Positions 35,972 through 51,193 of a stretch of 64,000 bases of DNA are shown here, one piece after another. Made by a program: the position numbers and the translations under genes. Source of the DNA: Methanobacteriota archaeon (GTDB lineage Archaea > Thermoplasmatota > Poseidoniia > Poseidoniales > Thalassarchaeaceae). Location: NCBI GenBank assembly GCA_002730095.1, contig PBZE01000037.1:1695-65694 (forward strand). The letters are read 5' to 3'. A model generated the notes under the pieces. That model worked only from the letters and a program-made list of their open reading frames with translations. It was not told the DNA's origin and searched no databases. The stretch's first letter is position 1. Every line of letters begins with the position of its first letter.

Positions 35972-38049
35972 GAAGAGTTGTACTTTGGTCGCCTTCCTTC
36001 GATTAAAGCACTCAAACCCTCTTCTGCATCTGCAGTACTGAAGATCTCTTCAAGTCTTTCCAGCTCTAGTTCAAGACCCCTGTCTAGACTAGATCCAGTC
36101 CCAATGTCCGAAAGAAGCTCGTTCGCTATCTTTAGAGCAATCGGGGCAGCTCTCGACAATGACTTGATCTGCCTTGAAACTAAAGGATCCTCAGAATCGA
36201 AACCCGAAGGAACTTCTCCTGCTAATAGAGATTGAACGTTTTCATTGGAGTAGAAATCCTTCGCGAAAGAGACTATGTCGCTATCTCCATTAATCGGCTC
36301 ACTAGGATATTTATTCTCAGGCTTAGTTCCAATGAGGGTACTAACAATGGACTCGACTTCAGAAGCATCCACATTATGAGTTAGAAGGCCTAAATCATGT
36401 GCAGTAGTACAATCTAGGAAGTTTCCAGCCAACACCGCATATCTTGAGCATTCTAAACCGCATATTCTAGCTGTCCGCTGAGTCCCTCCTAGTCCTGGGT
36501 ATATGCCTATTGATGTCTCTGGGAACCTGAATTGACTTCTCCTGGTTCCTATTCTGTAGTCGCAAGATAGAGCCAGTTCGAGACCTCCTCCCAATGCCAA
36601 ACCGGTCGTAAGAGCTATTGTGGTCTTCTGGCTTTTTTCAATTGCGTTCAGAACCTCATGTCCGTTTGCGGTGAATTCGTAAATATCCCCAAATGAGTCC
36701 TCTCTCAACTTGTCAACAAAGAATTTGACGTCTGCTCCAGCAACGAACGCCTTACCGGCCCCCTCAAAGATCATGGTCGATATATCGGATCTTGAATTGA
36801 TTTGTTCAACTATAACACCAAGTTGCGATACCAGTTCGACATTTAGTGCATTCATAGCCTCTGGCCTGTTCAACTTCACCCTGGCCACGTCTCCATCTAC
36901 TGTCAAGTCAACGTATGAGAATTCGAATTTCTCCATCTTGCTAGTAAACCATATTGGTATCTCCAGTCCGGCTAAATCTGAGTATTCAGAAGCCATACGA
37001 GATGCATTTCTGATCCCAATCTCATTCGCCATTTCAAATGGCCCTTTGGCCCATCTAAGACCGACTTTGGCCCCTCTGTCAACATCTTCCATCGAACAAA
37101 TCCCCTCCTCTACAATTTGAGATGAAACAGAAAACACCTGCCCGAGTAATCTTTCTGAGATTATTCTACTACTTTCTTCGTCACAATCCTCAGATCCTTC
37201 AATGTCCCACATTCTTCCTTCTTCTACCAGTTTCCTGAGGTTTCCCGCCCCCCTATATCTTGGGGTTTCTAATTGCTCAGCTAGATAGTCGGTTGAGTGT
37301 AGCGCAATAGGCGGTCCAGTAAGATTCATCAGGGCGAACGGGCCCATCCCAATACTGAACGATTTTCTGCAAACGGCGTCTATCTGTGCTGCAGTGCCGA
37401 CACCTTCTTCCAACAGTAAACATGCTTCATTTAGCCAAGGAACAAAAAATCGATTTACGACAAATCCGGGCCTATCTTTGCAGACGATAACCACCTTTCC
37501 CATCGCCTTGCAGTACTGTTCCACTTGATTGACGCTCTCCTCGGAACTTTTGGATGCGGGAATAATCTCCACAAGTCTATTTTTTGCTGGGTGGTAGAAG
37601 AAGTGAAGCCCAACAAACCTATCTGGCCTTCCTGTGACTTCAGCCAATTCGTTTACCGACAGCGAGGAAGTATTGCTGGCCAATATGGTACTCTCTCCGC
37701 ATACCTCGTTCAGAGTCTGGAATACTCCCTTCTTGATATCAAAGTCCTCGAATACTGCCTCAATAACTAGGTCTGTGCTCGGATCGACATTCTCCGTCCC
37801 AACCACTCCCAAAATCCTCGATTTAATATCCTCAACCTGCTTGGAATTGAAAATACGTCGATCCTCGGCCTCCTTTAGAAAGCTCGATACAATCCCATGG
37901 CCTCTATTCACCCACTCTTGCTCTCTATCTACCATTTGAACCTCAAAAAGCTCTTGAGCACTCTTCTGTGCTATCCCAGAGCCCATGTTTCCTGCACCAA
38001 TGACTGCCACCTTCTCAATCAGTCCCATGGCCTTCCGACGTGGGGCCAA
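35968..38049 (-). CDS. fused 3-hydroxyacyl-CoA dehydrogenase (N-terminal) / enoyl-CoA hydratase (C-terminal)
   Basis: VAVIGAGNMGSGIAQ is the NAD Rossmann motif and VVNRFFVPWLNEA a HAD block. The crotonase fold follows: VARVKLNRPEAMNAL, FVAGADVKFF, GLALGGGLELALSCDYRI. The domain order is reversed relative to bacterial FadB, as is known for archaeal fusions. Confidence 0.85.
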   Translation of the reverse strand: MAPRRKAMGLIEKVAVIGAGNMGSGIAQKSAQELFEVQMVDREQEWVNRGHGIVSSFLKEAEDRRIFNSKQVEDIKSRILGVVGTENVDPSTDLVIEAVFEDFDIKKGVFQTLNEVCGESTILASNTSSLSVNELAEVTGRPDRFVGLHFFYHPAKNRLVEIIPASKSSEESVNQVEQYCKAMGKVVIVCKDRPGFVVNRFFVPWLNEACLLLEEGVGTAAQIDAVCRKSFSIGMGPFALMNLTGPPIALHSTDYLAEQLETPRYRGAGNLRKLVEEGRMWDIEGSEDCDEESSRIISERLLGQVFSVSSQIVEEGICSMEDVDRGAKVGLRWAKGPFEMANEIGIRNASRMASEYSDLAGLEIPIWFTSKMEKFEFSYVDLTVDGDVARVKLNRPEAMNALNVELVSQLGVIVEQINSRSDISTMIFEGAGKAFVAGADVKFFVDKLREDSFGDIYEFTANGHEVLNAIEKSQKTTIALTTGLALGGGLELALSCDYRIGTRRSQFRFPETSIGIYPGLGGTQRTARICGLECSRYAVLAGNFLDCTTAHDLGLLTHNVDASEVESIVSTLIGTKPENKYPSEPINGDSDIVSFAKDFYSNENVQSLLAGEVPSGFDSEDPLVSRQIKSLSRAAPIALKIANELLSDIGTGSSLDRGLELELERLEEIFSTADAEEGLSALIEGRRPKYNSS

Positions 38050-38127
38050 TCAATGAATGCAACGGACGAACTGTGTCAAATTAATTCACCAATGAATTTA
38101 TTCATTCCGCACATCCCATACAGGGCC

Positions 38128-40779
38128 ATGGCACCACGGCGCGTCATCTCGGTAGTATTGATATTCATACTACTATCTTCTGTTTCTCAGGTGGCCATTG
38201 CTAACAGTGGAGGCAAGTTCAATTCGTCCAATGGCTGCAACTGTCATGGTGGATCCGCGGCCTCGCCAACTCCCACTCAGAACTTTCCAACAATCTACTC
38301 ACCCGGTCAGACGTACTCTCTAAACATAGGGATGAATGGAGGAGTTTCTGGGTCAAAGGGCGGATTCAATCTAGAAGTTTCTGACGGCACACTTTCAACA
38401 GGAATTGGAATCATGAACACTCAGGTAAATCAAGCCGGGAACCAAGCAACCCATCAATTCCCAGACTACAGAAGCTGGTCTCTGGAGTGGACAGCTCCTT
38501 CAGCGGGAACGGGGTCGGTTACCTTCTCGCTAGCGGTAATGGCGGCGAATGGAAATGGGAATAACGGCGGGGATGGATGGGCAACCGTTTCAGTCCAGTC
38601 TAGCGAGGACTCCGGATCTACAAATAACCCCCCGGTTGCATCAGCATTGACCTATGTCCCGGCAAATCCAACCAAGGAGACCGGATTGTCAATTTCATAC
38701 AATTACTATGATGAAGACGGTGACTTCGAACAAGGAACCTCAATTCACTGGTTTAGAGACGGCCTCAGAGTGACCCAGATAGACGACCTGACAGACGTTC
38801 CGAACAGCTTCATCTCAAAGGGTCAAAGTTGGAGGGTCGAGCTTACTCCCAACGATGGTAATGAATTTGGCGATATGATTTCTCTAGATCCAATCACGAT
38901 TGGCAACACATTGCCTATTGCCAGGACCTTGTCTATTAGTCCAGACTCTCCCATGGATGACGATGACCTAACCTTGTCTTGGGAATATTACGATCTTGAT
39001 GGGGATCCCGAGAATTCCCAGCAAACGATGATTTATTGGTTCTTAGATGGCTCAAGAGTTGTTGAACTGGATGGAGAACTAACAGTCTCTAGCTTCATGA
39101 TTAGGTCTGGAGACGAGTGGGAGGCTTCAGTTACGCCGAGCGACTCTTCGGATTATGGTGACACTGCATATAGTGGAAAGGTTGTGATCGGGTCATCTAA
39201 CACCGGACCTTCAGTTACTGCCTTCATCTCAACTACAGGTAACACGTTAACTACCGACTCCCTTCAGCTCATCTACACTCCATATGATCCAGATGGAGAC
39301 GAAATACAATCGACTGAGATAAGATGGTTCAGGGACACCGTGATGGTTGCAGCGTTCAATGATGAGACTATAGTAGACCCATCATTTACAGCCAAAGGAG
39401 AGGAGTGGGAAGCTCATGTTAGAGTATTCGATGGCCTCGTATGGTCAGATTGGTACGTAACTACCCATGTCGACATTGTCAACACCCCACCAGTGGTAAC
39501 AGACATTTCCCTATTGCCAGAAGGAAAGCTAACAACCGACTCTGACCTGTATGTGGAATGGGAGCAATTCGATGTGGATGGAGATCTGGAGTTCGGGAGC
39601 CAGATTAGATGGTGGGTCGATGGCGAATGGATTACTGAATATGATGGACTGACGACTATTTCTCACTCTGAAGTAGACAGAGACGAACATTGGTCCGTTC
39701 AAGTAATCCCGGGGGATGGAGAGGATCTTGGAACTTCAATGAAGACCAACTCTAGAGCAATTGAAAACGCGAATCCCTCAATACTCGAAATATCATTACA
39801 AGGATCTGGACCTGATAGTATTCTAGGGTCGCCCGATTCACTGAGCGACCTCCTAGCAGTCACAGTATCTGAAGATCCAGACAATGAGCCGGTCGACCTC
39901 GACTATTTATGGTTCAGAGATGGTTTCGTGATACCTGAGCTAGATGGTTTGGATCGGGTGGATCAGATAAGGCTTGAGCCAAGTCAGGAATGGGAGGTCA
40001 TTGTAACAGCTACCGATCCGTGGGGACTCTCGGCAAATCTCTCTGCATCGGTGATTATCTCAAATATTGCTCCTCAGGCTTCATGGTCAGTTACTCCATC
40101 TCCACCAATTTCTGGGTCATTAGCAACATTCGATGCTACCTCATCATTCGACCTAGATGGAGAAATCACCTCCTATAAATGGGTGATAGATGGCGTGGAG
40201 GCCTCAGGAAGTACCATTGATGTGATCATGGGCCCAGGGCCACACTCAATCCATCTGACAGTTGTGGATAATCTACAGTTAGAGGGAATATCAGTTTCCA
40301 CAATAGTATACGACGATGTTCAGACTACTGCCTCTCTGACGGCCTCTTTGGAAGGGGACCAAGTTCTGTTGAGCTGGCAAGGAACTGCTGATGAATACAG
40401 GATATACAGATCTACTAGCCCGATATCCTCTGTCGTTGGGCTTACAATGTTCGATGAGCAACCCTCATGGGGAGAGGCGATTCCACAACCCCTACAGTCA
40501 TTAGACTCTACAGAATACCTAGAGTGGAGCGAAACGGCTCCAATAGCTACGACTCTCTACTATGCCGTGACATCAGTGGTTGATGGCAGAGAGGTGGTAT
40601 GGATAATTGATGGACAAAATCACGTCAATGTTGACGCATCGTCGATCGCATCGTCTGGACCAGAACCAATTGATGAGGCAAGTGACCTCACAACCATGCT
40701 TATCTCGGTGACCATGGCAGCTCTAGGAATCATATCTTTGGCGTTTGCTATTTACGACAACAGGAGGAGATTGAGATGA
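38128..40779 (+). CDS. secreted, C-terminally anchored protein: Cys-x-Cys-His-Gly / Reeler-like N-domain, five tandem ~95-aa repeats, PKD-like and FN3-like domains, TM anchor
   Basis: The track ORF starts at 37897 but overlaps the fadB-like gene. The in-frame MAPRRVISVVLIFILLSSVSQVAIANSGG at 38128 is a signal peptide. NGCNCHGG lies at 38236-38247. The PKD-like segment is LATFDATSSFDLDGEITSYKWVIDG. The C-terminus LISVTMAALGIISLAFAIYDNRRRLR is a TM helix plus an Arg cluster. Confidence 0.8.
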   Translation: MAPRRVISVVLIFILLSSVSQVAIANSGGKFNSSNGCNCHGGSAASPTPTQNFPTIYSPGQTYSLNIGMNGGVSGSKGGFNLEVSDGTLSTGIGIMNTQVNQAGNQATHQFPDYRSWSLEWTAPSAGTGSVTFSLAVMAANGNGNNGGDGWATVSVQSSEDSGSTNNPPVASALTYVPANPTKETGLSISYNYYDEDGDFEQGTSIHWFRDGLRVTQIDDLTDVPNSFISKGQSWRVELTPNDGNEFGDMISLDPITIGNTLPIARTLSISPDSPMDDDDLTLSWEYYDLDGDPENSQQTMIYWFLDGSRVVELDGELTVSSFMIRSGDEWEASVTPSDSSDYGDTAYSGKVVIGSSNTGPSVTAFISTTGNTLTTDSLQLIYTPYDPDGDEIQSTEIRWFRDTVMVAAFNDETIVDPSFTAKGEEWEAHVRVFDGLVWSDWYVTTHVDIVNTPPVVTDISLLPEGKLTTDSDLYVEWEQFDVDGDLEFGSQIRWWVDGEWITEYDGLTTISHSEVDRDEHWSVQVIPGDGEDLGTSMKTNSRAIENANPSILEISLQGSGPDSILGSPDSLSDLLAVTVSEDPDNEPVDLDYLWFRDGFVIPELDGLDRVDQIRLEPSQEWEVIVTATDPWGLSANLSASVIISNIAPQASWSVTPSPPISGSLATFDATSSFDLDGEITSYKWVIDGVEASGSTIDVIMGPGPHSIHLTVVDNLQLEGISVSTIVYDDVQTTASLTASLEGDQVLLSWQGTADEYRIYRSTSPISSVVGLTMFDEQPSWGEAIPQPLQSLDSTEYLEWSETAPIATTLYYAVTSVVDGREVVWIIDGQNHVNVDASSIASSGPEPIDEASDLTTMLISVTMAALGIISLAFAIYDNRRRLR
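38626..40074 (+). repeat. five tandem protein-level repeats (~95 aa, ~285 nt) inside the 38128-40779 gene
   Basis: Each unit reads Y(Y/D)xDGD...(I/Y)xW(F/W)(R/L/V)DG...G(D/Q/E)xW...V(T/I)P.DG....G......I.N..P. Examples: YYDEDGDFEQGTSIHWFRDG, YYDLDGDPENSQQTMIYWFLDG, PYDPDGDEIQSTEIRWFRDT, QFDVDGDLEFGSQIRWWVDG, DNEPVDLDYLWFRDG. Confidence 0.8.
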
Positions 40780-41855
40780 ACAGGATCGCCATTGTAATGC
40801 TTCTGTGCATATCCCTGGTATTGGCCCCTGGTTACTCAGTGGCGAACCCAGGAGGAAATGGAGACGCCGATAGGGATTACTCCTGCGGAGGGTCCTGTCA
40901 TGGAGATCCATCTCTAAGCATGCAGTCAGATGCTAAAATTGAGATCTCTCTTGGAAATGAGGCATTCTATGGGCAAGCCGTAGCTGTACATGTGACAGTA
41001 AGTGAAGTGTCTTCACCCACCAATATTTTCGGTATATTCATTCTCAGCTCCTTGAACGGCAACTCTGACACCCCAGAAGATTATGGTTGGCATATGATTC
41101 AGGACCCAAATGGGGGATCATCAAATTATATTGAAATGACAATGCCGTCTTCTGGAACAATTACTGCAACATGGGTAATGCTTACTCCAGAAGATCTCGG
41201 AAGTCATATTTTGTATGCAGAGATTCATCATGGTTCGTATGGCGGCGAAAAGGCATTTTCCGGCGTCAGTGAAGGCTTTGAGGTAATTGTCAACGAGGTC
41301 CCCGAAGGACTTCCGGGGATTTCCAGTGATTGGGTCGCACCATCATTCAGGGTTTCTGGTGACGACTCTCCCCTGCATATCAGTACTAGGAACTCAACAG
41401 ATATCTCTGTCGAATGGATGCTTGAGGGTGAATGGGACCCTATTTCAGCCCCAGTTCAATGTATCTCTGAATCAGGAGAGGAGATATGCAACGAATGGGA
41501 GGTGAATATTCCAGCCACCATGGGTGAAATCGACATTGTCTACAGAATTACAACATTCAATGGAACCTTCTCAATCGAACAGCCTTGGCTTAAAATGGGC
41601 ACTGCAGCACCTCCTTTCGAGGGAGACATATGGTCAGCAAGAGCCCACTCATTCGCATTTGCGCTTCTAGTCATCTCAATCTTAGTTACCTTGCAAGGAA
41701 GACTTTCACCAGTCATTCAGAGGGAAGAAATCGACCAAACAAAAATAGTCGATAAGTCGTCCCTGATCAGGTCTGATGACAATCCTGGATGGCTCTGGAA
41801 TCCAGTAGCAGAGGAATGGGTAGAAGACCCGGAGTATCGAGAGGAGGTCGAGTAA
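40776..41855 (+). CDS. secreted, anchored paralog with an N-terminal Cys-x3-Cys-His-Gly / Reeler-like domain
   Basis: Signal peptide MNRIAIVMLLCISLVLAPGYSVANPGG. SCGGSCHGD lies at 40884-40901. A TM helix (FAFALLVISILVTL) is followed by an acidic tail. The start overlaps the upstream stop (ATGA). Confidence 0.8.
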   Translation: MNRIAIVMLLCISLVLAPGYSVANPGGNGDADRDYSCGGSCHGDPSLSMQSDAKIEISLGNEAFYGQAVAVHVTVSEVSSPTNIFGIFILSSLNGNSDTPEDYGWHMIQDPNGGSSNYIEMTMPSSGTITATWVMLTPEDLGSHILYAEIHHGSYGGEKAFSGVSEGFEVIVNEVPEGLPGISSDWVAPSFRVSGDDSPLHISTRNSTDISVEWMLEGEWDPISAPVQCISESGEEICNEWEVNIPATMGEIDIVYRITTFNGTFSIEQPWLKMGTAAPPFEGDIWSARAHSFAFALLVISILVTLQGRLSPVIQREEIDQTKIVDKSSLIRSDDNPGWLWNPVAEEWVEDPEYREEVE

Positions 41856-42445
41856 TGGTAGGCTCTGCAACACTGCACACTGCAATGGCTGAGATAGTCG
41901 TAGGCTCTATGGTACTCGCTACCATCTGTGCTATTGGGTGCTTGGCCTCTAGGATTCTTACTCCTTCAGAAATCAATAGCGAGTCTCTTTTCATTACCAT
42001 GGACCGAGCCTCTCTAGCTGGGTCTTCTCTGGCTCTTTTATTCCTCCCTGTCGCTATAATGACTGGAAATCTTGCCGCCGAAGGACACGCCGAAAGCGCC
42101 CTCCTGTACAACAAGTTCGTCTATAGTGGCCTGGCCCTTGGCTTCTGGTCAGCCTTCGTGATTGGCAGGTATAGGATGGGGCCCGGGCTGTGGGATGTCA
42201 GGCAATTGGCAATTCTGCAGGCTGCAACCGCTGTGTCTGCTTTCCTCATGACTTCCATGGCTTCTTCTATTGGGGGAAAGCTAGTCAGGGGAGAATCGCT
42301 CTTTGATATCCTTCCATTCTGGCTACCTTCTGACTCGGCAGCCATTCTCCCATTATGGGCGTCGTCCTCACTTCTGTTGTTAGGCCTCATCTCCACATTT
42401 TTCGTCTTCAGGCTAACTCTTCCGAGAATACAGGAGATTGACTAG
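41855..42445 (+). CDS. polytopic membrane protein (about 5 TM), unknown function
   Basis: The track ORF begins at 41789 inside the upstream gene. ATG 41855 overlaps the upstream TAA (TAATG) and is preceded by GAGGAGG. There are five hydrophobic helices and only two His residues, so it is not a cytochrome b561. Confidence 0.65.
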   Translation: MVGSATLHTAMAEIVVGSMVLATICAIGCLASRILTPSEINSESLFITMDRASLAGSSLALLFLPVAIMTGNLAAEGHAESALLYNKFVYSGLALGFWSAFVIGRYRMGPGLWDVRQLAILQAATAVSAFLMTSMASSIGGKLVRGESLFDILPFWLPSDSAAILPLWASSSLLLLGLISTFFVFRLTLPRIQEID

Positions 42446-42449
42446 ATCT

Positions 42450-43682
42450 TCATAATTCGTCAAAAATCTCATACAGTCTTTCTGAGAATCTTTCTGGGTT
42501 CAAACCCTTCATTGAAATTCCAACCCTTCCGTTTTCCGACCATTGCGCTCGGTTCTCTGCGACCCCAGCTTCTTTGAGAGCATTATGCCATGCCGAGTAA
42601 TCATCCCTCGGTAGTAGCCTACCAGAATCTCCATCAGATATTGTCTCCTTGAAACCTCCTTCATCCACGAACAGTGCTGGCGTTCCAATCGTCTGTGCCT
42701 CAATCGGAGTGAGGCCAAATGGCTCAGAGTGAGCCATGCTAACCACGGCCTTGGCCCCTCTAATCAGACTGCAAAGATCAGTATAACTGAGCCTAGGAGC
42801 TATCCATATCCCAACCTTACAATCCTCTGCATGACTAGCCAGAGAATCAAGATCCCCTGACTCGCCCCCACCTACATGCGCCAAAGAATGCCCACTCCCT
42901 TGGAGCATTGATATCGTCTCCCAGGTGCCCTTCACCCAACTAGCCTTGCCAATGGTCACCACGTAGGGCTCAGTAGGCCCCTCTATCTTGATAGGCTCAT
43001 CATCAGAAGGGTTCTGCGTAAACTCACCTATCCCTAGGCTAGGCAAGAGAACGCCGGACGGGATTCCATATACCTCCCCAATTCTTGATGAAGTGAATTC
43101 AGAGTTTCCGCTTATGGCCGATCTATTCCTGGCATAAAGCTCCCTGATGAGTGAAAGATCCCTCCGTCTCGCTAGTGCTAAAGCAGCCTTTGTTACACCA
43201 AGACTCCTCCTTGGCCTACCGTCAATACCACGATGCAGAACATCCTCATGGAGCCCTCTATGGGGCTCCAAAAGGTGTAAGTGGATAGCAACGTCCTCGG
43301 GAATGATTTTCAAAATAGCCAAGCTACCATCTCCGCTTGTAATATGAGCAAAGTCAAACTCATTCAAGTCGTCCATTAGATTTCCGACCGACTTCCAACA
43401 CTCCAATGCTCTAGAATAATCAGTGTCAAGAACTCTGGAAATCACACTACTAGATTGCGACCATTTTAGACTCGGAGTCATTAATCGTATGCCATTTTCT
43501 TCGCAGACGCTAGCTAGCTCAGAAGAACTTTCCAATGTTGCAACAGAGACAGTAAATTTCTTAGATAGGGATGGAAGATTTCTGATTATGTCCCTCTCCG
43601 CTCCTCCCATGGGGGCAAAGCTACCCTTTGCGACTAGCAATCTTCTCGGAGGAGCACCAGTCCCGCCCCCATTGCGCGCCAT
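42450..43682 (-). CDS. glycosyltransferase, GT-B fold (family 4-like)
   Basis: VVSMAHSEPFGLTPIEAQTIGTPALFVDEGGFKETI is the E-x7-E region of GT4 enzymes. Confidence 0.8.
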   Translation of the reverse strand: MARNGGGTGAPPRRLLVAKGSFAPMGGAERDIIRNLPSLSKKFTVSVATLESSSELASVCEENGIRLMTPSLKWSQSSSVISRVLDTDYSRALECWKSVGNLMDDLNEFDFAHITSGDGSLAILKIIPEDVAIHLHLLEPHRGLHEDVLHRGIDGRPRRSLGVTKAALALARRRDLSLIRELYARNRSAISGNSEFTSSRIGEVYGIPSGVLLPSLGIGEFTQNPSDDEPIKIEGPTEPYVVTIGKASWVKGTWETISMLQGSGHSLAHVGGGESGDLDSLASHAEDCKVGIWIAPRLSYTDLCSLIRGAKAVVSMAHSEPFGLTPIEAQTIGTPALFVDEGGFKETISDGDSGRLLPRDDYSAWHNALKEAGVAENRAQWSENGRVGISMKGLNPERFSERLYEIFDEL

Positions 43683-43732: not shown

Positions 43733-44824
43733 ATGGTGAGGAGAGTTCTACTGGTCAGAGGACCTCGCCTTTCAGAGGATTCGGGCCTGGGCAGAGCACA
43801 TCATTCAATCGAGCATTCGCTGAACAGAGCTCTGGTACCCAACTGGACAAAAATCAACACTATCGAACATGAACCAATGGATACTCTTCCATCAAGAGTC
43901 ATGAAGAGATGGTTCTCTCACCCAAGATTAGTCAATCAAATATCAGAGTCTACAGAGGCCGATTTGATTCATATAACTGACCAGGAGCAAGCCCATTTGG
44001 TACCAAAGAAAAGCAAGGTTCCGGTAATCGTCACAGTCCATGACTTGTTTCACATAAGCCCAAGGGAGATAGTTGGGGGGGATGTAGTAGTTCCAGTGGG
44101 AGATAACAAACCCGGATTCTTCAGGAGGAGAGATCTGAGAAATCTGAAGAACGGACTTCGGAGGGCCGATATGCTGATTTGTATTTCTGAGGCCACTCTG
44201 GAAGATGTGAAGAGAACATTCCCAGGAAAACCAGTTGCTCTTGTGAGGCACCAGATTGACACAGAATACTGGAGTCCAATTTCAAATCCCAGGCCAAGAG
44301 AGATTCTTGGTGACCTAGATGACGAATCAAAGATGCTTGTGATAACTTTGGGGAGCAATGAAAGAAGGAAAAGACTCGATTTTGCCAAGAAGGTGATTTC
44401 TTCTTTGCCCGAGGAGGTCTCCAAAGATATCAATGTGATCCACATAGGAAGCGATGTGAAGATAACCGATGATCAACTACTCGCAGCTCTACAAAATGCG
44501 GAGGTCCTACTGTTCCCCAGTGCGAGCGAAGGATTCGGGTACCCCCCTGCCGAGGCAATGGCTGCTGGTTGTCTAGTACTCGCCTCGGACTTGCCCGCAC
44601 ACAATGAGATAATTCCAGACACCTGCCTGCTACCCCCTACCTCAATCCAAGACTGGGTAAGTGAGTTGACATCTATCCATGCCAATTGGAGGGCTGCAGG
44701 AGGGGTTCCGAGACTCCCATCAGACGAGTTGATGAATCATGTAATGAACAACCTGAGCCCTGAATCCCATGGAAAATCTTTAGCAGAAGCATATGAAACA
44801 GTTTTCTCCGACAAAATAAATTGA
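43733..44824 (+). CDS. glycosyltransferase, GT-B fold (family 4-like)
   Basis: VLLFPSASEGFGYPPAEAMAAGCLVLASDLPAHNEII is the GT4 C-terminal motif. Divergent from the previous GT gene across a 50-bp spacer. Confidence 0.8.
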   Translation: MVRRVLLVRGPRLSEDSGLGRAHHSIEHSLNRALVPNWTKINTIEHEPMDTLPSRVMKRWFSHPRLVNQISESTEADLIHITDQEQAHLVPKKSKVPVIVTVHDLFHISPREIVGGDVVVPVGDNKPGFFRRRDLRNLKNGLRRADMLICISEATLEDVKRTFPGKPVALVRHQIDTEYWSPISNPRPREILGDLDDESKMLVITLGSNERRKRLDFAKKVISSLPEEVSKDINVIHIGSDVKITDDQLLAALQNAEVLLFPSASEGFGYPPAEAMAAGCLVLASDLPAHNEIIPDTCLLPPTSIQDWVSELTSIHANWRAAGGVPRLPSDELMNHVMNNLSPESHGKSLAEAYETVFSDKIN

Positions 44825-44889
44825 AGATTGAATTACGACTGATTATAAGGTCAGGGTAAGACGTAACTACACGCTCAGGAGAGGTACAG

Positions 44890-45594
44890 GTGCTGGAAGT
44901 AAGTAATCTGACGAAGTCCTTCGGCTCGGGAAGGAACAGGCTCGAAGTGCTAAAGGGAATTGATTTGAAAATCGAATCCGGTGAGCTCGTCGCTCTAATG
45001 GGGCCGTCAGGATGTGGAAAGTCCACCCTTCTGAACATTATCGGCGGACTTCTGGAAGCTGACTCTGGCTCCATTTCACTGAATGAATTTGATTATGGGA
45101 CATATCCCCCGAACAGGGTTGTAGACGTCAGAAGAAACGGAGTGGGATGGATATTCCAAGACTTCCATCTTGTAGACAGGCTTTCCGCACTCGACAATGT
45201 GACTTTCGCTTTGGAGCTATCGGGCGTCCCAACCTCACTCGCAGAGTCGCAGGCTGAGGAGGCACTTCGCAAGGTTGGCCTGTCAGACAGAATGAACTTC
45301 ATCCCTGACCAGCTTTCGGGAGGGCAGAGGCAGAGGGTCGCCATTGCCAGAGCAATCTCTGGCTCGAGGCCCCTCATCCTTGCTGATGAGCCGACTGGCA
45401 ATCTAGATGTCAAGAGCGCTGAAGGAATTCTTGATCTTTTCAAGGAGCTATGCGAGGATTATGGCATCTCCGTCCTGATGGTTACCCATGACCCTAACCT
45501 TGCATCAATGGCAGACAGAATGCTCCTACTCAAGGACGGTGTTACTGCCGCTTCAGATATCAGATCTGCATGGGGAACGGCGGGTGATGAATGA
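44890..45594 (+). CDS. ABC transporter ATP-binding protein (MacB/LolD/FtsE-like)
   Basis: Walker [13 protein letters not shown], signature [14 protein letters not shown], Walker [15 protein letters not shown] start. The stop overlaps the next start (ATGA). Confidence 0.9.
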
Positions 45595-48500
45595 TGGATT
45601 TCTTCTACGAGGATGATCACAGGCCAGAATCTCCAATGCATCCATTTGAGGCCATAAAGAAATGCATCGTAAAGACAGGGGACCTAGGGGGAAGGGCGTC
45701 AAGATCAGAATTCTGGAACTTCTTTTGGTTCTATCTTATACTGGCTCCAATATTATTTGTAGCTGACATTTTTTACAAAATTATGATTTTATCATTGTCC
45801 TCTCTTGTGGGCATAGGATTGCTTGATACACTTTTCTTTGTTCCCCTGTCCTACCTAGTTCTCTTTACTCAACTTGCTCTGTTCTATTCCTTCACAAGTG
45901 TAACCGTTCGTAGGTTGCATGATTTAGGAAGATCTGGTTGGTGGTTAATCAGTACCCCGATCCCTCTCCTCAACTTTGTACTGCCTTTCTTTCTTGTTCA
46001 AGAGGGTGAATACAATAAAAATGAGTACGGATCAGTACCAGACAATGATCCGATAAACGCTTCAATCATGGAAATAATGTATGCCATGCCTGACAATATG
46101 TCAATGGCGTTCAAGAGTGCTTGGAAGGGAAGGGAAAGGGTACTCGCAGTTTTTGCAGGTGTCTTCTTGGCATCGCTTGTCATAACTACAGTCCTAGCTT
46201 ACTCTGCTGGACTGAATGGGGCTTTCCTACAATTCTCTCTACAAGATGAAATCTTTGACGGAAAGGTGGATTTCGCCAATGACCCGGGTCAGGATTCTGA
46301 AGGCAGAACAAATGACTCATTACTCTGGGAAACCGCCTGCTCTGAACTCATACAGATGGACGAAATATCCGATTGTGGGTTAGTATTCGGCAGACAGGGA
46401 GTGAGAGTCAGCGGATTTTTAGATGATGGCGCCATAATTCCTCAGCCCCTAAATGCCGTAGGGGTCACTAGTACTGTTGGGGATTGGAACAATGTCAGTT
46501 GGGAATATCCCGAGGCTTATGACTCAGGACCTCCAATTAACGATAAGAGGACGATAAGGTTCTATGGAGAGGGAATATGGGACGGCGATTTGGGAGAGAG
46601 ACATTCTAACCGGGTGATATATGGATCATGGCCAGGATCTGCTGAAGAAGCCGCTTCAAATCGCTCGATCATCCTCCCTTCTCAAATTGCTGGTAAGGCA
46701 GGTGTAGGAGTAAACGACACCCTCGAATCATTAACCTTCTCTTACACATACGACTACCTTGGCTACCAAGATATACCCTCTGGCTTCGATGACTGTCCCG
46801 GGTACGAATATTTCAATCTCGATTCTGGATTCCTGTATTGTCAAGTTAACATGACGGTTTACGATCTCAAGGTAGCCGCGGTTTATCAGGAAGGAGGGGC
46901 AGGCAACCCAACTCTCCTGTTTAATCCGATAATGGTCTCGGCCTCGGTTCTCAACGATTCTCAGAAGCTTACCCTGATGGACAATGATCACGGATACCTC
47001 GGAATAGCAGTAGATAGGAACCAGCTCCCCTCCTCATCTACGAGCGCCGCCACGAAGTGGCTGGATGGATTGAAGGGGGAGATTGAGGGGTCCAATTACA
47101 CTATCGGTAATGACATAATGGTTGAATACAACGACCTCATTTCAGGCTCCATTTTATTCCTCGAGTTGTTATTGGGGCTAATAAGTGTCTTCGACTACAT
47201 CCTGATGATACCAATAGTGATACTATCATTCTCAGTTCTTATTTATGGTCTGATACTTTCTCTGGAACAGAGGAGAAGGGAGATCTCAATTCACAGGGTT
47301 ATTGGGGGTACGGAGTCAACTCTCGGCTCCCTGATTCTTCGAGAGCTGTCGGTTGTAAGTGTGCTTGGTTGGTTCTTAGGATATGTCCTCGCAATGGCCT
47401 CCGTGCCAGTAGTACTTGATGCGGTTGGATTCATGGCCTTCGAGAAAAGTGACTTCAGAGTAGTGCCCACATTGAGCGGGTTAGCTACATTCTTGATTTT
47501 CCTCGTGACAGTCGGGATAACTCTACTCTTTGGGAGCTCCAGAACATCAGAATTCTTGAGTATAGAAATCGATGAAGGAGTCAGAAGAGTTGCTCCTAGG
47601 AAGAGATCAAGGTTTTGGCTACACCTTCTGGTCTTCTTTGTTGGCGTCCTGTCATTTGTAGAGAGCTGGATAGAGAGTAACGGTGGTTTTGGTCCGTGGG
47701 GACCAAAGGGAATAAACTCCAATTTCATAGTCGATGGACTATTATTCCTGTTCGGCCCGTTCTTCCTCTGGATAGGTGGAGCCCTAGTACTCGGTAGAAT
47801 AGGCGCGGCGGGGCCTAGGATATTCACGACATTGTTTGGGTGGACCCCTGTCCTGACAGATATCAAGAGGGGATTGAGGGGATCAGGGTCGAGTGAATCA
47901 GTGAATCGTCTAGCAATAATATTACTGCTAACCCTATCAATTGTCACTGTTGCAGCCGTACAGGGGTATACCGGAACTCTGGTGGACGAGAGAACCACTT
48001 CTGCGCAGACCGGTGCGGACTTGCAGGTTCAATTCGATGAGCCAATCTCACAGCAACGAGCTATGGAGGAGGTAACGCTAGCAATACAAAGAGCCGATGT
48101 ATCCGAGATTGACTCAATAGACTACATGACCTCGGTCGGAGATATCTTCACAAATCAGAAAGGCGAAGGTTCCCTTCTCAGGACATGGATCGTCTTTGAT
48201 GGGCATGAAGATACTTTACAATGGGATGAGCAGGCAATACCGGGCAGTGACATTGGAGCTGTGTCAGATGACTGGGCATTATCGGGATTCACTGCTGGTG
48301 GGGCTGCAAGAAACCAATTGGATATTTCTAAATCAGATGTTGGATCTAATGTAACTTTACAGTACACTTCCTACGGATTCGGAGGATTCGATAGCGAAAT
48401 GAATCCAATAATAACCTCGACGATAACTGAGGCTGAGGTAACATACATGGGAGGACACAGATGGGTTCCAGGGTTACTATCCTCAGAGTCATCCCAAGCT

Positions 48501-49163
48501 ATAGTCATCGGTGAAGGAACTTACAAGCTTCTTCTAGGGCCATCGGCTGTCACTGACTACACGTCGAATCGCTGGTTCTTCGAGCTATGTGACCAGTCTC
48601 AAAAGGATTGTAAAAACGCATTGAAGACCCTAGGTGTCGAGGTCTCAAACGGTGAGGGCGTCTCATCCGCTAGCGATTGGGGGACAAATCATGAGGGCAA
48701 TGAACGTACAGGCGGGCTAATTTTCGGTACGCCGGGACTCCTAAGCCTGCAATTCGTCGTGGCATCATTGGCTTCGATAGCCTCGGCATTCGTATTCCTA
48801 TCACTCGTTCTATCACAGAGGAAGAAGGAACTGGCCATTCTTCAGGCGATCGGAGCAAGCCCGGCGCAGGTATTGCGTCTGGTACTTTTCGAGATAATGG
48901 CGATTCTCTTGGTTAGTATGGCCCTGGGAGTTATTCTCGGTTTGGCTATATCAGAATCATTCAACGGATTCTTCGGGGTATTTGGATTCATTTTCCAGAT
49001 TTTCCTCGGTCAGAGCGCCCCGATAGACAGGGACTTAGTTTGGCCTTGGACAGAGTTAATCATCGTGAATGCCTCAGTGCTCGTAGCGGTTGTGATAGCT
49101 CTTCTACTGACAACCAGGAGAGCATTGAAGTCTGACTTGGCAATAGTGCTGAAGGGGGAGTGA
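45591..49163 (+). CDS. 1190-aa fusion: N-terminal DUF805 membrane domain plus a double FtsX-type (MacB-like) ABC permease with two large extracytoplasmic domains
   Basis: DUF805 hallmarks are PFEAIKKCIVKTGDLGGRASRSEFWNFFWF...TVRRLHDLGRSGWWLI...NKNEYG (nt about 45642-46040). The two FtsX helical bundles are EISIHRVIGGTESTLGSLILRELSVVSVLGWFLGYVLA and ELAILQAIGASPAQVLRLVLFEIMAILLVSMALGVILG. Each is preceded by a soluble loop of 200-300 aa. Confidence 0.8.
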   Translation: MMDFFYEDDHRPESPMHPFEAIKKCIVKTGDLGGRASRSEFWNFFWFYLILAPILFVADIFYKIMILSLSSLVGIGLLDTLFFVPLSYLVLFTQLALFYSFTSVTVRRLHDLGRSGWWLISTPIPLLNFVLPFFLVQEGEYNKNEYGSVPDNDPINASIMEIMYAMPDNMSMAFKSAWKGRERVLAVFAGVFLASLVITTVLAYSAGLNGAFLQFSLQDEIFDGKVDFANDPGQDSEGRTNDSLLWETACSELIQMDEISDCGLVFGRQGVRVSGFLDDGAIIPQPLNAVGVTSTVGDWNNVSWEYPEAYDSGPPINDKRTIRFYGEGIWDGDLGERHSNRVIYGSWPGSAEEAASNRSIILPSQIAGKAGVGVNDTLESLTFSYTYDYLGYQDIPSGFDDCPGYEYFNLDSGFLYCQVNMTVYDLKVAAVYQEGGAGNPTLLFNPIMVSASVLNDSQKLTLMDNDHGYLGIAVDRNQLPSSSTSAATKWLDGLKGEIEGSNYTIGNDIMVEYNDLISGSILFLELLLGLISVFDYILMIPIVILSFSVLIYGLILSLEQRRREISIHRVIGGTESTLGSLILRELSVVSVLGWFLGYVLAMASVPVVLDAVGFMAFEKSDFRVVPTLSGLATFLIFLVTVGITLLFGSSRTSEFLSIEIDEGVRRVAPRKRSRFWLHLLVFFVGVLSFVESWIESNGGFGPWGPKGINSNFIVDGLLFLFGPFFLWIGGALVLGRIGAAGPRIFTTLFGWTPVLTDIKRGLRGSGSSESVNRLAIILLLTLSIVTVAAVQGYTGTLVDERTTSAQTGADLQVQFDEPISQQRAMEEVTLAIQRADVSEIDSIDYMTSVGDIFTNQKGEGSLLRTWIVFDGHEDTLQWDEQAIPGSDIGAVSDDWALSGFTAGGAARNQLDISKSDVGSNVTLQYTSYGFGGFDSEMNPIITSTITEAEVTYMGGHRWVPGLLSSESSQAIVIGEGTYKLLLGPSAVTDYTSNRWFFELCDQSQKDCKNALKTLGVEVSNGEGVSSASDWGTNHEGNERTGGLIFGTPGLLSLQFVVASLASIASAFVFLSLVLSQRKKELAILQAIGASPAQVLRLVLFEIMAILLVSMALGVILGLAISESFNGFFGVFGFIFQIFLGQSAPIDRDLVWPWTELIIVNASVLVAVVIALLLTTRRALKSDLAIVLKGE

Positions 49164-49166
49164 GAT

Positions 49167-50162
49167 ATGGAAGAGGAATCAATTATTCTTGAAGCTAAGA
49201 ATATGTATCATATCTACGAGAGCATGAGCCTAGAAGGAAATGTAGTTGCATTGAGAGGACTCAATGTTAAGATCAAGGAGGGCGAGGCCGTTGCTGTCAT
49301 AGGCCCATCTGGATCTGGAAAATCAACACTTCTGAAGTGCCTAGGTGGTTTGATGAAACCATCATCTGGCTCAGTCTCGCTAGGTGGGAAGGAAATGATA
49401 AGAATGACTGGAAACGAACTAGTCAGACTCAGGCAGGAAACAGTCTCTTTCATCTTCCAAGACTCAAATCTACTTCCCGATCTGAATGCCCTGGATAATG
49501 TCGCACAACCACTCAGGCACCAAGGGGTGATGCCGGGGCCTGCAAGGGCCAAGGCTAGGGAGTTGCTCGAGAGGCTAGCGATGGGTGACAGGTGGATGGG
49601 TATGCCAGAGCAACTCTCCGGAGGAGAGCAACAGCGTGTGGCGATCGCTAGGGCACTGATAACCAATCCAAAGCTGATACTAGCAGATGAGCCAACAGGT
49701 GCGTTGGATCCAATCACCAGTAGGGAGGTCCTAGAGTTGTTCGAGAAGCTCCATGAGGAGGAAGACGTGGCCTTCTTACTGGTCACCCACAATAGGGACG
49801 TGGCGTACTTCTGCGAGAGGTCTCTGGAACTCAGAGAGGGGAGGTTCGTGGCACAACACGGCACAGATTTCGACTTGTCAGATCTCTCAGAAACTAGGGA
49901 GCTAATTATCGACGATACCGGTACCATAACTCTCCCTCCAGATCTATTGTTGAAGCTCGGAGGGCCTGGAAGGTTCGACGTCCCCAATGTGGAAAGAGAC
50001 TCTCTAAATCTAGAGAGAGTGGAAGACGAGAAAATCGAGGTCGAGGCCAAGAATAAGAGAGAGCTTGCACAGACCTGTCCCGCTTGTAATTACGATTATG
50101 CTGACTCAATCGATCAGATTTGTCCAGAATGCGGGTCCACGAGGCCAATTGTTCACACTTGA
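49167..50162 (+). CDS. second ABC ATP-binding protein with a C-terminal extension ending in a zinc ribbon
   Basis: Walker [38 protein letters not shown]. An extra tail of about 95 aa ends in CPACNYDYADSIDQICPECG (nt 50076-50132). Confidence 0.9.
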   Translation: MEEESIILEAKNMYHIYESMSLEGNVVALRGLNVKIKEGEAVAVIGPSGSGKSTLLKCLGGLMKPSSGSVSLGGKEMIRMTGNELVRLRQETVSFIFQDSNLLPDLNALDNVAQPLRHQGVMPGPARAKARELLERLAMGDRWMGMPEQLSGGEQQRVAIARALITNPKLILADEPTGALDPITSREVLELFEKLHEEEDVAFLLVTHNRDVAYFCERSLELREGRFVAQHGTDFDLSDLSETRELIIDDTGTITLPPDLLLKLGGPGRFDVPNVERDSLNLERVEDEKIEVEAKNKRELAQTCPACNYDYADSIDQICPECGSTRPIVHT

Positions 50163-51193
50163 GGGAGCATGAACCTCTGTGGCTTTGCGATTCCTAGGTC
50201 CTTTGGAAGATCCATGCTCGCTATTGGGAGATCAACGGGTATCATCTTCTTCCCAATTAGGGCAACCCTGCTCTCCCTTCTGTCCGAAAGTAGCTTTCTC
50301 CCTACGAGCGGGGCGAGCTTCTCCGAGAACTCAATAATTTCTTGGTGAGTTGGCATATTCTCAACTGAGAGGTTGTTCCTGCTATTTCCTACATTGACAT
50401 AACCCTTCGCTTCGATGAAATCCGGGTCGGCCAAATTATCCAATCTCGCGTAATCTTCGTGGAATCCCAATGACTCATGCTTGATCAGAGTGTGCCTACA
50501 AACCGTCCTCGTGTCTAAGCTAGGCAGCAACTCCAGAGTCTCCTCCAGCTTGTGAAAGGCGCCCTGGTCGAACTTGGGCTTGCACAGTCTGTCGAATATC
50601 TCCTTGTTTGGTGCATCTACCGAGACATAGAGTTGAGTAGGCAAGGGGTCCAGGTTCTCAATTACCTTTGGAAGGCTGCCATTAGTGACCAGAAATGTGG
50701 ATGTTCCATGATTGTGACATACCTCTAAGAACTCTCCAAGTCTGGAATACAACGTCGGCTCACCATTCAATGATATTGCCACATGCTTGGGATTCTGAGC
50801 CTCGAGAAACTTCTCCTTGTCAGCCTTAGGGTTCCCTCCGAAACCAGTCAAGAGTCTACGATGCGCCTTTACCGATTCCAGATAGAGCTCGTATGGATCA
50901 TCGTCTATCTTGTTTAGGGTGTCTGAATGAGGCTCCCTCCAACAGTAAGTGCAGCCTAGGTTGCATGTGTCCACGTTGGGTGCCATCTGCATGCAGCCGT
51001 GACTCTCTATTCCGTAGAATGTGCCCTTGTAGCAAGACCTGTCCGCGATGAGACTCTGCTTAGTCCAGTGGCATACTTTCACGCCCCCATGCTCTCCAAC
51101 CAACTGGTACTTCTGCTTCGAGAGCTTGGCAGCGATACGCGGCTCTATCTTGGTCACAGGCCCTTGCATGTTAATCCCCACTCCGGATCCCAC
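50153..51193 (-). CDS. taw1: radical SAM 4-demethylwyosine synthase (Taw1/TYW1)
   Basis: CNLGCTYCWR is the CX3CX2C radical SAM cluster. The upstream Cys trio (VKVCHWTK...SCYK...HGCMQM) and ISLNGEPTLY match TYW1. Confidence 0.85.
   Translation of the reverse strand: MGSGVGINMQGPVTKIEPRIAAKLSKQKYQLVGEHGGVKVCHWTKQSLIADRSCYKGTFYGIESHGCMQMAPNVDTCNLGCTYCWREPHSDTLNKIDDDPYELYLESVKAHRRLLTGFGGNPKADKEKFLEAQNPKHVAISLNGEPTLYSRLGEFLEVCHNHGTSTFLVTNGSLPKVIENLDPLPTQLYVSVDAPNKEIFDRLCKPKFDQGAFHKLEETLELLPSLDTRTVCRHTLIKHESLGFHEDYARLDNLADPDFIEAKGYVNVGNSRNNLSVENMPTHQEIIEFSEKLAPLVGRKLLSDRRESRVALIGKKMIPVDLPIASMDLPKDLGIAKPQRFMLPQV

Follow-up and report, generated by a model that had tools for sequence, protein, structure and literature searches.

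The window analysed here, a stretch of 64,000 nucleotides (nt) from a Methanobacteriota archaeon of the Thalassarchaeaceae, order Poseidoniales (assembly GCA_002730095.1, contig PBZE01000037.1, positions 1,695 to 65,694), carries an operon of three genes encoding an ATPase of the ATP-binding cassette (ABC) type, A1, a permease of the FtsX type and a second ATPase, A2, in the order ATPase-permease-ATPase (A-P-A; Table 1). According to the open reading frame (ORF) calls and translations of the window, and to the junction bases read directly from the sequence, the start of the permease gene and the stop of A1 overlap in the ATGA at 45591-45594, and TGA-gat-ATG at 49161-49169 leaves a gap of 3 nt between the permease and A2. 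An earlier note on this DNA had described three tightly coupled genes, and the ORF coordinates, the overlap and the gap are exactly as it gave them; it had not recognised the host as an archaeon of Marine Group II (Poseidoniales). The operon is far beyond chance, because its three proteins are kept at 55-97% identity in about 80 species genomes. Ahead of A1, the sequences TTATAA and GGAGAGGT hint at a promoter and a ribosome-binding site of the operon's own. At the opposite end, a radical-SAM/wyosine-formation gene (50153-51193, reverse strand) is convergent with A2 and overlaps its 3' end by 10 nt, such that little space is left for a terminator between them; this neighbour is syntenic in 59 related loci, and the synteny is limited to Poseidoniales.

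Marine Group II and Asgard archaea share the A-P-A layout as a conserved feature, and within a well-known class of transporters it is an unusual variant. When one genome per GTDB species was scanned, 280 stretches encoding relatives were found, and the locus statistics were taken from the best 80 of the 280; all but one of these (79) are labelled as Marine Group II/Poseidoniales-type archaea. The permease homologues come from sources named Candidatus Thalassarchaeaceae, Poseidoniales and 'Euryarchaeota archaeon'. In those of the 80 loci that retain the flanks, an orthologue of A1 (66-97% identity) is found directly upstream of the permease and an orthologue of A2 (65-96% identity), including its C-terminal tail, directly downstream, and the apparent exceptions to this order in Poseidoniales loci are all contig ends. 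The same order is found in loci L001-L003 and in L092, a Poseidoniales relative of 45% identity with the gene order and synteny of the window. The one locus labelled otherwise, L082 (CAJWWP010000092.1), is a 3.4-kb contig in an 'uncultured Chloroflexi bacterium' bin; it encodes A1 and the permease at 61-67% identity to those of the window and is most likely a mis-binned Poseidoniales contig.

An exhaustive HMMER search gave 73 clusters at E < 1e-30, including full-length relatives at 27-32% identity, and a profile of the latter identified Asgard archaea, namely Lokiarchaeum ossiferum, Heimdallarchaeota and Hodarchaeales. The Asgard-type relatives (27-40% identity) show the A-P-A order in all loci with intact flanks. 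With protein lengths in amino acids (aa), the arrangement is A235-P1002-A335, A246-P1027-A337 and A243-P1216-A337 in three metagenome contigs (L084, L085 and L087), A238-P972-A318 in the cultured Lokiarchaeum ossiferum (L088, CP104013.1), A230-P972-A331 in Heimdallarchaeota (L089) and A228-P1005-A335 in Hodarchaeales (L090). The sole exception, L086, is an orphan permease paralogue (6001-8823) with no ATPases and with transposase genes on both sides. In the next tier, at about 23% identity, the permease is found with a single ATPase of 230-242 aa (L091 and L093). The survey of synteny and phyletic distribution proposed in the earlier note thus found both ATPases, set off from the permease by an overlap or a gap of 1-12 nt, in every relative with intact flanks in two archaeal phyla; relatives in which the ATPases are missing beside the permease, which that note had named as the case that would speak against it, did not appear among these loci apart from the orphan copy in L086.

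Pfam assigns both ATPases to ABC_tran (E 1e-34 and 8e-35). In NCBIfam they score best with LolD, DevA, FtsE and the ATPase domain of MacB, in each case below the equivalog cut-off: LolD (TIGR02211) scores 200.5 and 211.7 against a cut-off of 307.75, and the DevA family, the top match of A1, 213.2 bits against 295.8. Sequence matches in the PDB include MJ0796, LolD, MacB, YtrE and YbbA. The two proteins are 42% identical to each other, and in both of them the Walker A, signature, Walker B-Glu and H-loop motifs are canonical, the last reading VTHD in A1 and VTHN in A2, which bears out the earlier description of two different ATPases with intact Walker A, signature and Walker B. The catalytic motifs are kept in nearly all of the 79 orthologues of A1 (signature LSGGQ in 77/79), and the same four motif types are found with minor substitutions across the 83 orthologues of A2 (LSGGE in 83/83), such that neither ATP site looks degenerate. 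In a simple neighbour-joining tree of the ATPase domains (Kimura distances, 225 columns, 200 bootstraps), A1 and A2 were each monophyletic across Poseidoniales and Asgard archaea (176 and 177 of 200 bootstraps, respectively). As they fall into separate clades, the duplication is old, and separate clades together with canonical motifs in the orthologues are the pattern expected of an obligate heteromeric pair.

The permease matches Pfam FtsX (PF02687) in two stretches (69.5 bits against a cut-off of 25.5), and comparison by hhalign shows its two transmembrane modules to be homologous (probability 92%, E 6e-7). From hydropathy and an AlphaFold2 model based on an alignment of 42 sequences (predicted local distance difference test, pLDDT, 69; predicted template modelling score, pTM, 0.54), the protein is predicted to have 10 transmembrane (TM) helices in a 4+2+4 arrangement, with outside domains in TM1-2 and TM7-8. 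The two FtsX modules with their outside domains had been recognised in the earlier note, and its limits for these domains (aa 210-505 and 830-1040) are close to those obtained from hydropathy and AlphaFold2; an N-terminal DUF805 domain and the pair TM5-6 had been overlooked. Foldseek searches of the PDB with the model ranked E. coli YbbP first, aligned over the full length (9ge7_A, E 1.5e-12, 1079 columns), followed by BceB (E 1e-10), LolE/LolC and MacB. A search of the PDB by sequence found the C-terminal FtsX module only (LolF, YtrF, MacB and LolC) and missed YbbP.

Domain 1 contains four invariant cysteines (C250, C262, C402 and C417) and domain 2 two (C1000 and C1007), and the two coupling regions of the permease are unlike each other, each of them being invariant. 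No sequence similarity was found between outside domains 1 and 2 (hhalign probability 0.2%), and after this profile-profile null the view of them as duplicates that can still be recognised, which holds for YbbP, was given up. In position and size they agree with the Porter/Sabre-type domain that the superfamily carries between the first two helices of a module. About 310 columns of the model align by Foldseek to the periplasmic domain of LolE (5udf, E 7e-5), a match not assigned to either outside domain, and a stretch of this moderate-confidence model aligns to the periplasmic domain of MacB (5lj8, E 0.02).

The DUF805 domain (PF05656) scores 68.5 bits against the Pfam gathering cut-off of 25.7. 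A misassembly or a miscalled start was considered as the origin of the fusion and rejected, since the fused domain is in frame in an ORF that starts at the ATGA overlap and is seen again in 13 GTDB species loci and among the 120 best permease homologues (35 of them). DUF805 is absent from the permeases of other Poseidoniales clades, and none was recorded for the Asgard permeases; a literature search for the function of DUF805 found nothing relevant. The domain poses a puzzle of topology (45591-46130, permease aa 1-180), as the first FtsX helix, running from inside to outside, needs a cytoplasmic C-terminus of DUF805, and the three DUF805 helices of the AlphaFold2 model would then place both the N-terminus of the permease and the loop with the conserved RRLHDLGRSGWW on the cell exterior.

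A2 has about 100 extra C-terminal residues, a tail that the earlier note did not mention. Its second part carries a conserved predicted zinc ribbon with two CxxC knuckles: the pattern CxxC-x(6-20)-CxxC is present in 83/83 orthologues of A2 and in 0/79 of A1, and the cysteines of CPxC...CxxCG show no variation between the protein of the window and its Asgard relatives. Pfam Zn_ribbon_3 and DZR match it below threshold (best E 3.7e-5). Ahead of the zinc ribbon, a beta-alpha-beta-beta pattern comes after a block R-x-[LV]-[IV]-x-D-x-x-G-x-[LI]-T-[LI]-P, and this motif is kept as far as Asgard. The resemblance of this first part to the AbrB/SpoVT/MazE half-barrel is suggestive only. Pfam MazE/SpoVT-AbrB (PF04014) gave E values of 0.0055-0.017, below the cut-off. 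A search of a large database with the tail gave only gene fragments of up to 193 aa, used as the AlphaFold2 alignment and unfit for full-length A2; the resulting model of the tail reached a pLDDT of 68 and a pTM of 0.28. Foldseek found no significant match with this model, and the N-domains of AbrB and SpoVT were among the non-significant ones (root-mean-square deviation 2.0-2.7 A over 41-44 residues, E>1).

Table 1. Features of the operon and of the genes upstream of it, in window positions.
Feature	Position	Strand	Description
Divergent GT1/GT4-type glycosyltransferase	42450..43682	-	Pfam Glycos_transf_1
GT4 glycosyltransferase	43733..44824	+	65 nt upstream of A1; Pfam Glyco_transf_4 and Glycos_transf_1
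Candidate archaeal TATA box	44843..44848	+	TTATAA, 42-47 nt upstream of the A1 start; read from sequence
Shine-Dalgarno-like motif	44878-44885	+	GGAGAGGT, ahead of the GTG start of A1; read from sequence
ATPase 1 (A1)	44890..45594	+	GTG start, 234 aa; LolD/MacB/DevA-class, ATPase domain alone
Permease	45591..49163	+	ATG start, 1190 aa; DUF805, then YbbP-like 10-helix duplicated FtsX protein
DUF805 membrane domain, N-terminal	45687..46031	+	aa 33-147; 3-4 hydrophobic helices, RRLHDLGRSGWW motif; Pfam PF05656
TM1, FtsX module 1	46134..46217	+	aa 182-209; hydropathy, AlphaFold2 helix 181-219
Extracytoplasmic domain 1	46218..47132	+	aa ~210-514; mixed alpha/beta fold
TM2-TM4, FtsX module 1	47133..47546	+	aa 515-652; includes coupling-helix region LSLEQRRREISIHRVIGG
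Linker helix pair TM5-TM6	47613..47801	+	aa 675-737; AlphaFold2, hydropathy; matches the TM5-6 link of YbbP (PMC12646458)
TM7, first helix of FtsX module 2	47895..47975	+	aa 769-795; AlphaFold2, hydropathy
Extracytoplasmic domain 2	47976..48713	+	aa ~796-1041; AlphaFold2, hydropathy
TM8-TM10, FtsX module 2	48714..49133	+	aa 1042-1181; coupling-helix region LVLSQRKKELAILQAIGAS; best Pfam FtsX stretch 1055-1181
ATPase 2 (A2)	49167..50162	+	ATG start, 331 aa; LolD/MJ0796-class domain aa 1 to ~235 and C-terminal tail
A2 tail part 1	49896..50027	+	Possible AbrB/SpoVT/MazE-like swapped-hairpin module, aa ~244-287, RELIIDDTGTITLPPDLLLKLGGPGRFDV
A2 tail part 2	50076..50132	+	Predicted CPAC...CPEC zinc ribbon, aa 304-322

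The Type VII ABC systems, MacB, LolCDE, FtsEX, YbbAP and BceAB, are the model for mechanotransmission, and all members characterised to our knowledge use one ATPase type and are bacterial. LolD/MacB-class ATPase partners with intact motifs, together with FtsX modules, place the archaeal system in this superfamily. YbbAP(-TesA) of E. coli (PDB 9GE6/9GE7/9GE8) likewise consists of a single-chain 10-helix permease and a LolD-class ATPase, and YbbP has a 4+2+4 topology, outside domains in TM1-2 and TM7-8 and a stoichiometry of YbbA2:YbbP1 (PMC12646458). The mechanism of mechanotransmission is presumably common to both systems. However, YbbAP uses two copies of one ATPase whereas the archaeal system has two paralogous ones, and the outside domains of YbbP are about 26% identical to each other (PMC12646458) whereas those of the archaeal permease are unrelated in sequence. 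In addition, the archaeal system has no conserved partner resembling TesA, adds the DUF805 fusion and the zinc-ribbon tail of A2, and belongs to a host without an outer membrane. As E. coli YbbP, BceB and the ADOP family have it, the single-chain double-FtsX permease is already known, and the novelty lies in the two different ATPases and their asymmetry.

Other relatives share parts of this design. LolCDE, MacB, DevBCA and FtsEX have the same FtsX four-helix fold, an outside domain on stalk helices and the same ATPase class, but their permeases are homodimeric or made of two chains and they use one ATPase type; they rely on the bacterial envelope partners LolA, MacA-TolC, DevB and EnvC, respectively, which are absent in archaea. 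BceAB, the peptide-7 exporter of Firmicutes (PDB 7TCH/8G4C), likewise has a 10-helix permease of the FtsX type and a separate ATPase; its single outside domain, its BceA homodimer and its coupling to BceRS have no counterpart in the archaeal system. Membership in four families was considered and rejected: ADOP (TIGR03434) by a score of 34.9 bits against a cut-off of 622.3; LolCDE by LolCE (TIGR02212) at 17.7 against 362.45, by LolD below its cut-off and by the single chain of the permease; DevBCA by the DevA score given above and the lack of an adjacent gene for a membrane-fusion protein (DevB); and BceAB by the two outside domains and the lack of a kinase or regulator in the neighbourhoods.

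Among the solved archaeal ATPases, MJ0796 of Methanocaldococcus (PDB 1F3O/1L2T) is the closest to A2 (E 1e-51), but it is an ATPase domain of 235 aa without a tail and a homodimer in the crystal. A pair of paralogous ATPases from one operon serves one membrane module in EcfA/EcfA' of the ECF transporters and in OppD/OppF; these are analogous only in the way they work, being importers with unrelated transmembrane folds, and no membership is claimed. The YtrBCDEF operon of B. subtilis likewise encodes two ABC ATPases and an FtsX-type protein, YtrF (PDB 9O9X in our searches); YtrB and YtrE have been tied to different membrane proteins, and it is not settled whether they form one or two transporters (PMC7828314). 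The structure of YtrEF contains YtrE alone as the ATPase. In the literature searched, neither this family nor an FtsX system with two ATPases is described, and the possibility raised in the earlier note, that the family had already been characterised, found no paper behind it. In one metatranscriptome study, an 'ftsX-like permease' of a Poseidoniaceae genome, which may or may not be this gene, is noted as highly transcribed and is not analysed further (PMC9723583).

We consider it probable that the three genes encode one Type VII (MacB/FtsX-superfamily) ABC mechanotransmission complex with heteromeric ATPases, which acts on the outer face of the membrane. In the permease, FtsX module 1 is made up of TM1, outside domain 1 and TM2-4, and module 2 of TM7, outside domain 2 and TM8-10, with TM5-6 as the linker. 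In the proposed complex, which would have a 1:1:1 stoichiometry, one A1 and one A2 would bind to the coupling helices of a single permease (TM2-3 and TM8-9), which differ from each other, and would pair as a heterodimer whose ATP sites are both catalytically competent. Closure of this heterodimer, driven by ATP, would zip the four stalk helices (TM1, 2, 7 and 8) and move the two dissimilar outside domains, such that work is done on the outer face and no solute is carried across the bilayer. Most probably, the complex would extract or expel a lipid-like amphiphile from the outer leaflet, or else it would drive an extracellular partner protein. The tail of A2, with its possible AbrB-like module and its zinc ribbon, may serve as a one-sided cytoplasmic site of regulation or docking. 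The earlier note had already proposed a single-chain machine with heterodimeric ATPases that may act on the cell surface; the pairing of the ATPases is now backed by their co-occurrence and their clades, and action at the surface is what knowledge of the family as a whole would suggest.

The gene structure, the domains, the fold class, the intact motifs, the strictly kept gene order and the age of the A1/A2 split are seen in the data, whereas the stoichiometry, the mechanism, the class of substrate and the role of the tail belong to the model. Several points weigh against this interpretation. We infer, rather than observe, the A1-A2 heterodimer and the placement of each ATPase on one half of the permease; the permease model is of moderate confidence only and 12% identical to YbbP; Pfam scans of each outside domain alone, with E values up to 10, gave nothing meaningful, MacB_PCD included, this being the outcome of the profile searches that the earlier note had proposed for both domains; the tree is a simple one, built on Kimura distances and 225 columns; and the likeness of the tail to AbrB does not reach significance. 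Finally, the Poseidoniales and the Asgard loci have no conserved gene neighbour in common, so the gene context gives no hint of a substrate.

A specific version of the proposed complex, which we regard as possible but doubtful, is an exporter of glycolipids or lipid-linked glycans, in which a glycolipid made by the adjacent GT4 glycosyltransferases is taken from the outer leaflet to the cell surface. The GT4 gene lies on the same strand as A1 and close to it (65 nt), a homologue of it is found directly upstream of A1 in 38 of the 64 Poseidoniales loci, usually with a second glycosyltransferase gene nearby, and L092 retains these genes at 45% identity. DevBCA, of the MacB type, handles heterocyst glycolipids, and the analogies with DevBCA and YbbAP, together with the top NCBIfam match of A1, DevA, point in the same direction. 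However, the DevA match is generic for ATPases of this class, as scores nearly as high are obtained with LolD, FtsE and MacB, and no glycosyltransferase adjoins the operon in any of the Asgard-type loci (L084, L085, L087-L090) or in 26 of the 64 Poseidoniales loci; in L003 an MMPL protein is encoded upstream of A1 in its place. Synteny within a single order may also be mere inherited gene order. The GT4 gene is a neighbour specific to this lineage, and it cannot be shown to belong to the ABC system. The two genes upstream of the operon that the earlier note called GT4 glycosyltransferases are of the GT4/GT1 type by Pfam, and their link to the operon holds only within Poseidoniales, for part of the loci.

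It appears somewhat less likely that the complex is an allosteric regulator or platform for an extracellular enzyme in the style of FtsEX-EnvC or YbbAP-TesA, with the outside domains holding and activating a secreted hydrolase. YbbP, the best structural match, has the hydrolase TesA as partner, and Poseidoniales are thought to metabolise lipids and peptides (PMC9723583). Two neighbours recall the YbbAP-TesA arrangement, namely an alpha/beta hydrolase encoded directly upstream of A1 in the Hodarchaeales locus L090 (4313-5182) and a 4HBT thioesterase encoded just upstream of the orphan permease in L086, but a hydrolase neighbour is not conserved, none being found in the window or in most loci. 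Extraction of a glycolipid or lipid and the control of an extracellular enzyme both fit the present data.

That the two ATPases do not work together, one serving the permease as a homodimer and the other being redundant, regulatory or part of another transporter that is linked by coincidence, seems improbable to us. The use of one ATPase type in all characterised Type VII systems known to us, as in YbbA2:YbbP1 (PMC12646458), and the identity of only 42% between the two domains would fit this explanation. However, both genes flank the permease in all intact loci of the two phyla, catalytic motifs are kept in both proteins, which form ancient separate clades, no second permease is encoded nearby, and the coupling regions of the permease differ from each other while each is invariant. 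A module for the sensing and detoxification of antimicrobial peptides, like BceAB, is highly improbable, since in spite of BceB being the second-best structural match and of some homologues being named 'ABC-type antimicrobial peptide transport system permease', BceB has a single outside domain (TM7-8) and works with the two-component system BceRS (PMC7828314) whereas the archaeal permease has two such domains and the neighbourhoods examined contain neither a kinase nor a regulator, and the near-universal presence in Poseidoniales favours a housekeeping role.

A broader proposal, which goes well beyond the complex itself and which we put forward only tentatively as an unlikely one, would make this operon the founding example of an archaea-specific Type VII branch of Marine Group II and Asgard archaea. 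In such a branch an obligate A1/A2 heterodimer would drive a strongly asymmetric single-chain permease, and through the one-sided zinc-ribbon/AbrB-like tail of A2 a signal or partner in the cytoplasm would be coupled to the building or remodelling of the archaeal cell surface, for example by exporting glycolipids or lipid-anchored surface components. We know of no described machinery with a function of that kind in these lineages. If the heteromeric reading is true, the operon offers a natural system for asking how two ATP sites and two coupling helices share work, and it points to an unstudied envelope function in Poseidoniales, which are among the most abundant planktonic archaea, and in Asgard archaea, the closest relatives of eukaryotes. 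Since the cultured Lokiarchaeum ossiferum carries the operon, this reading is open to direct tests.

Further upstream in the window, three consecutive ORFs of 960, 359 and 218 aa (37897-42445, forward strand) without a Pfam match sit between a FadB-like gene and the glycosyltransferase genes. The product of the first has a hydrophobic anchor at its end, and that of the second a start resembling a signal peptide and a CGGSCH motif. These ORFs are kept at 50-82% identity in a subset of the related loci (matches in 23 and 29 loci), and L001 is without them, its glycosyltransferase genes coming directly after the FadB-like gene. On the reverse strand, a giant ORF of 2906 aa (2727-11447) probably encodes a surface protein of the very large kind that is typical of Marine Group II archaea.

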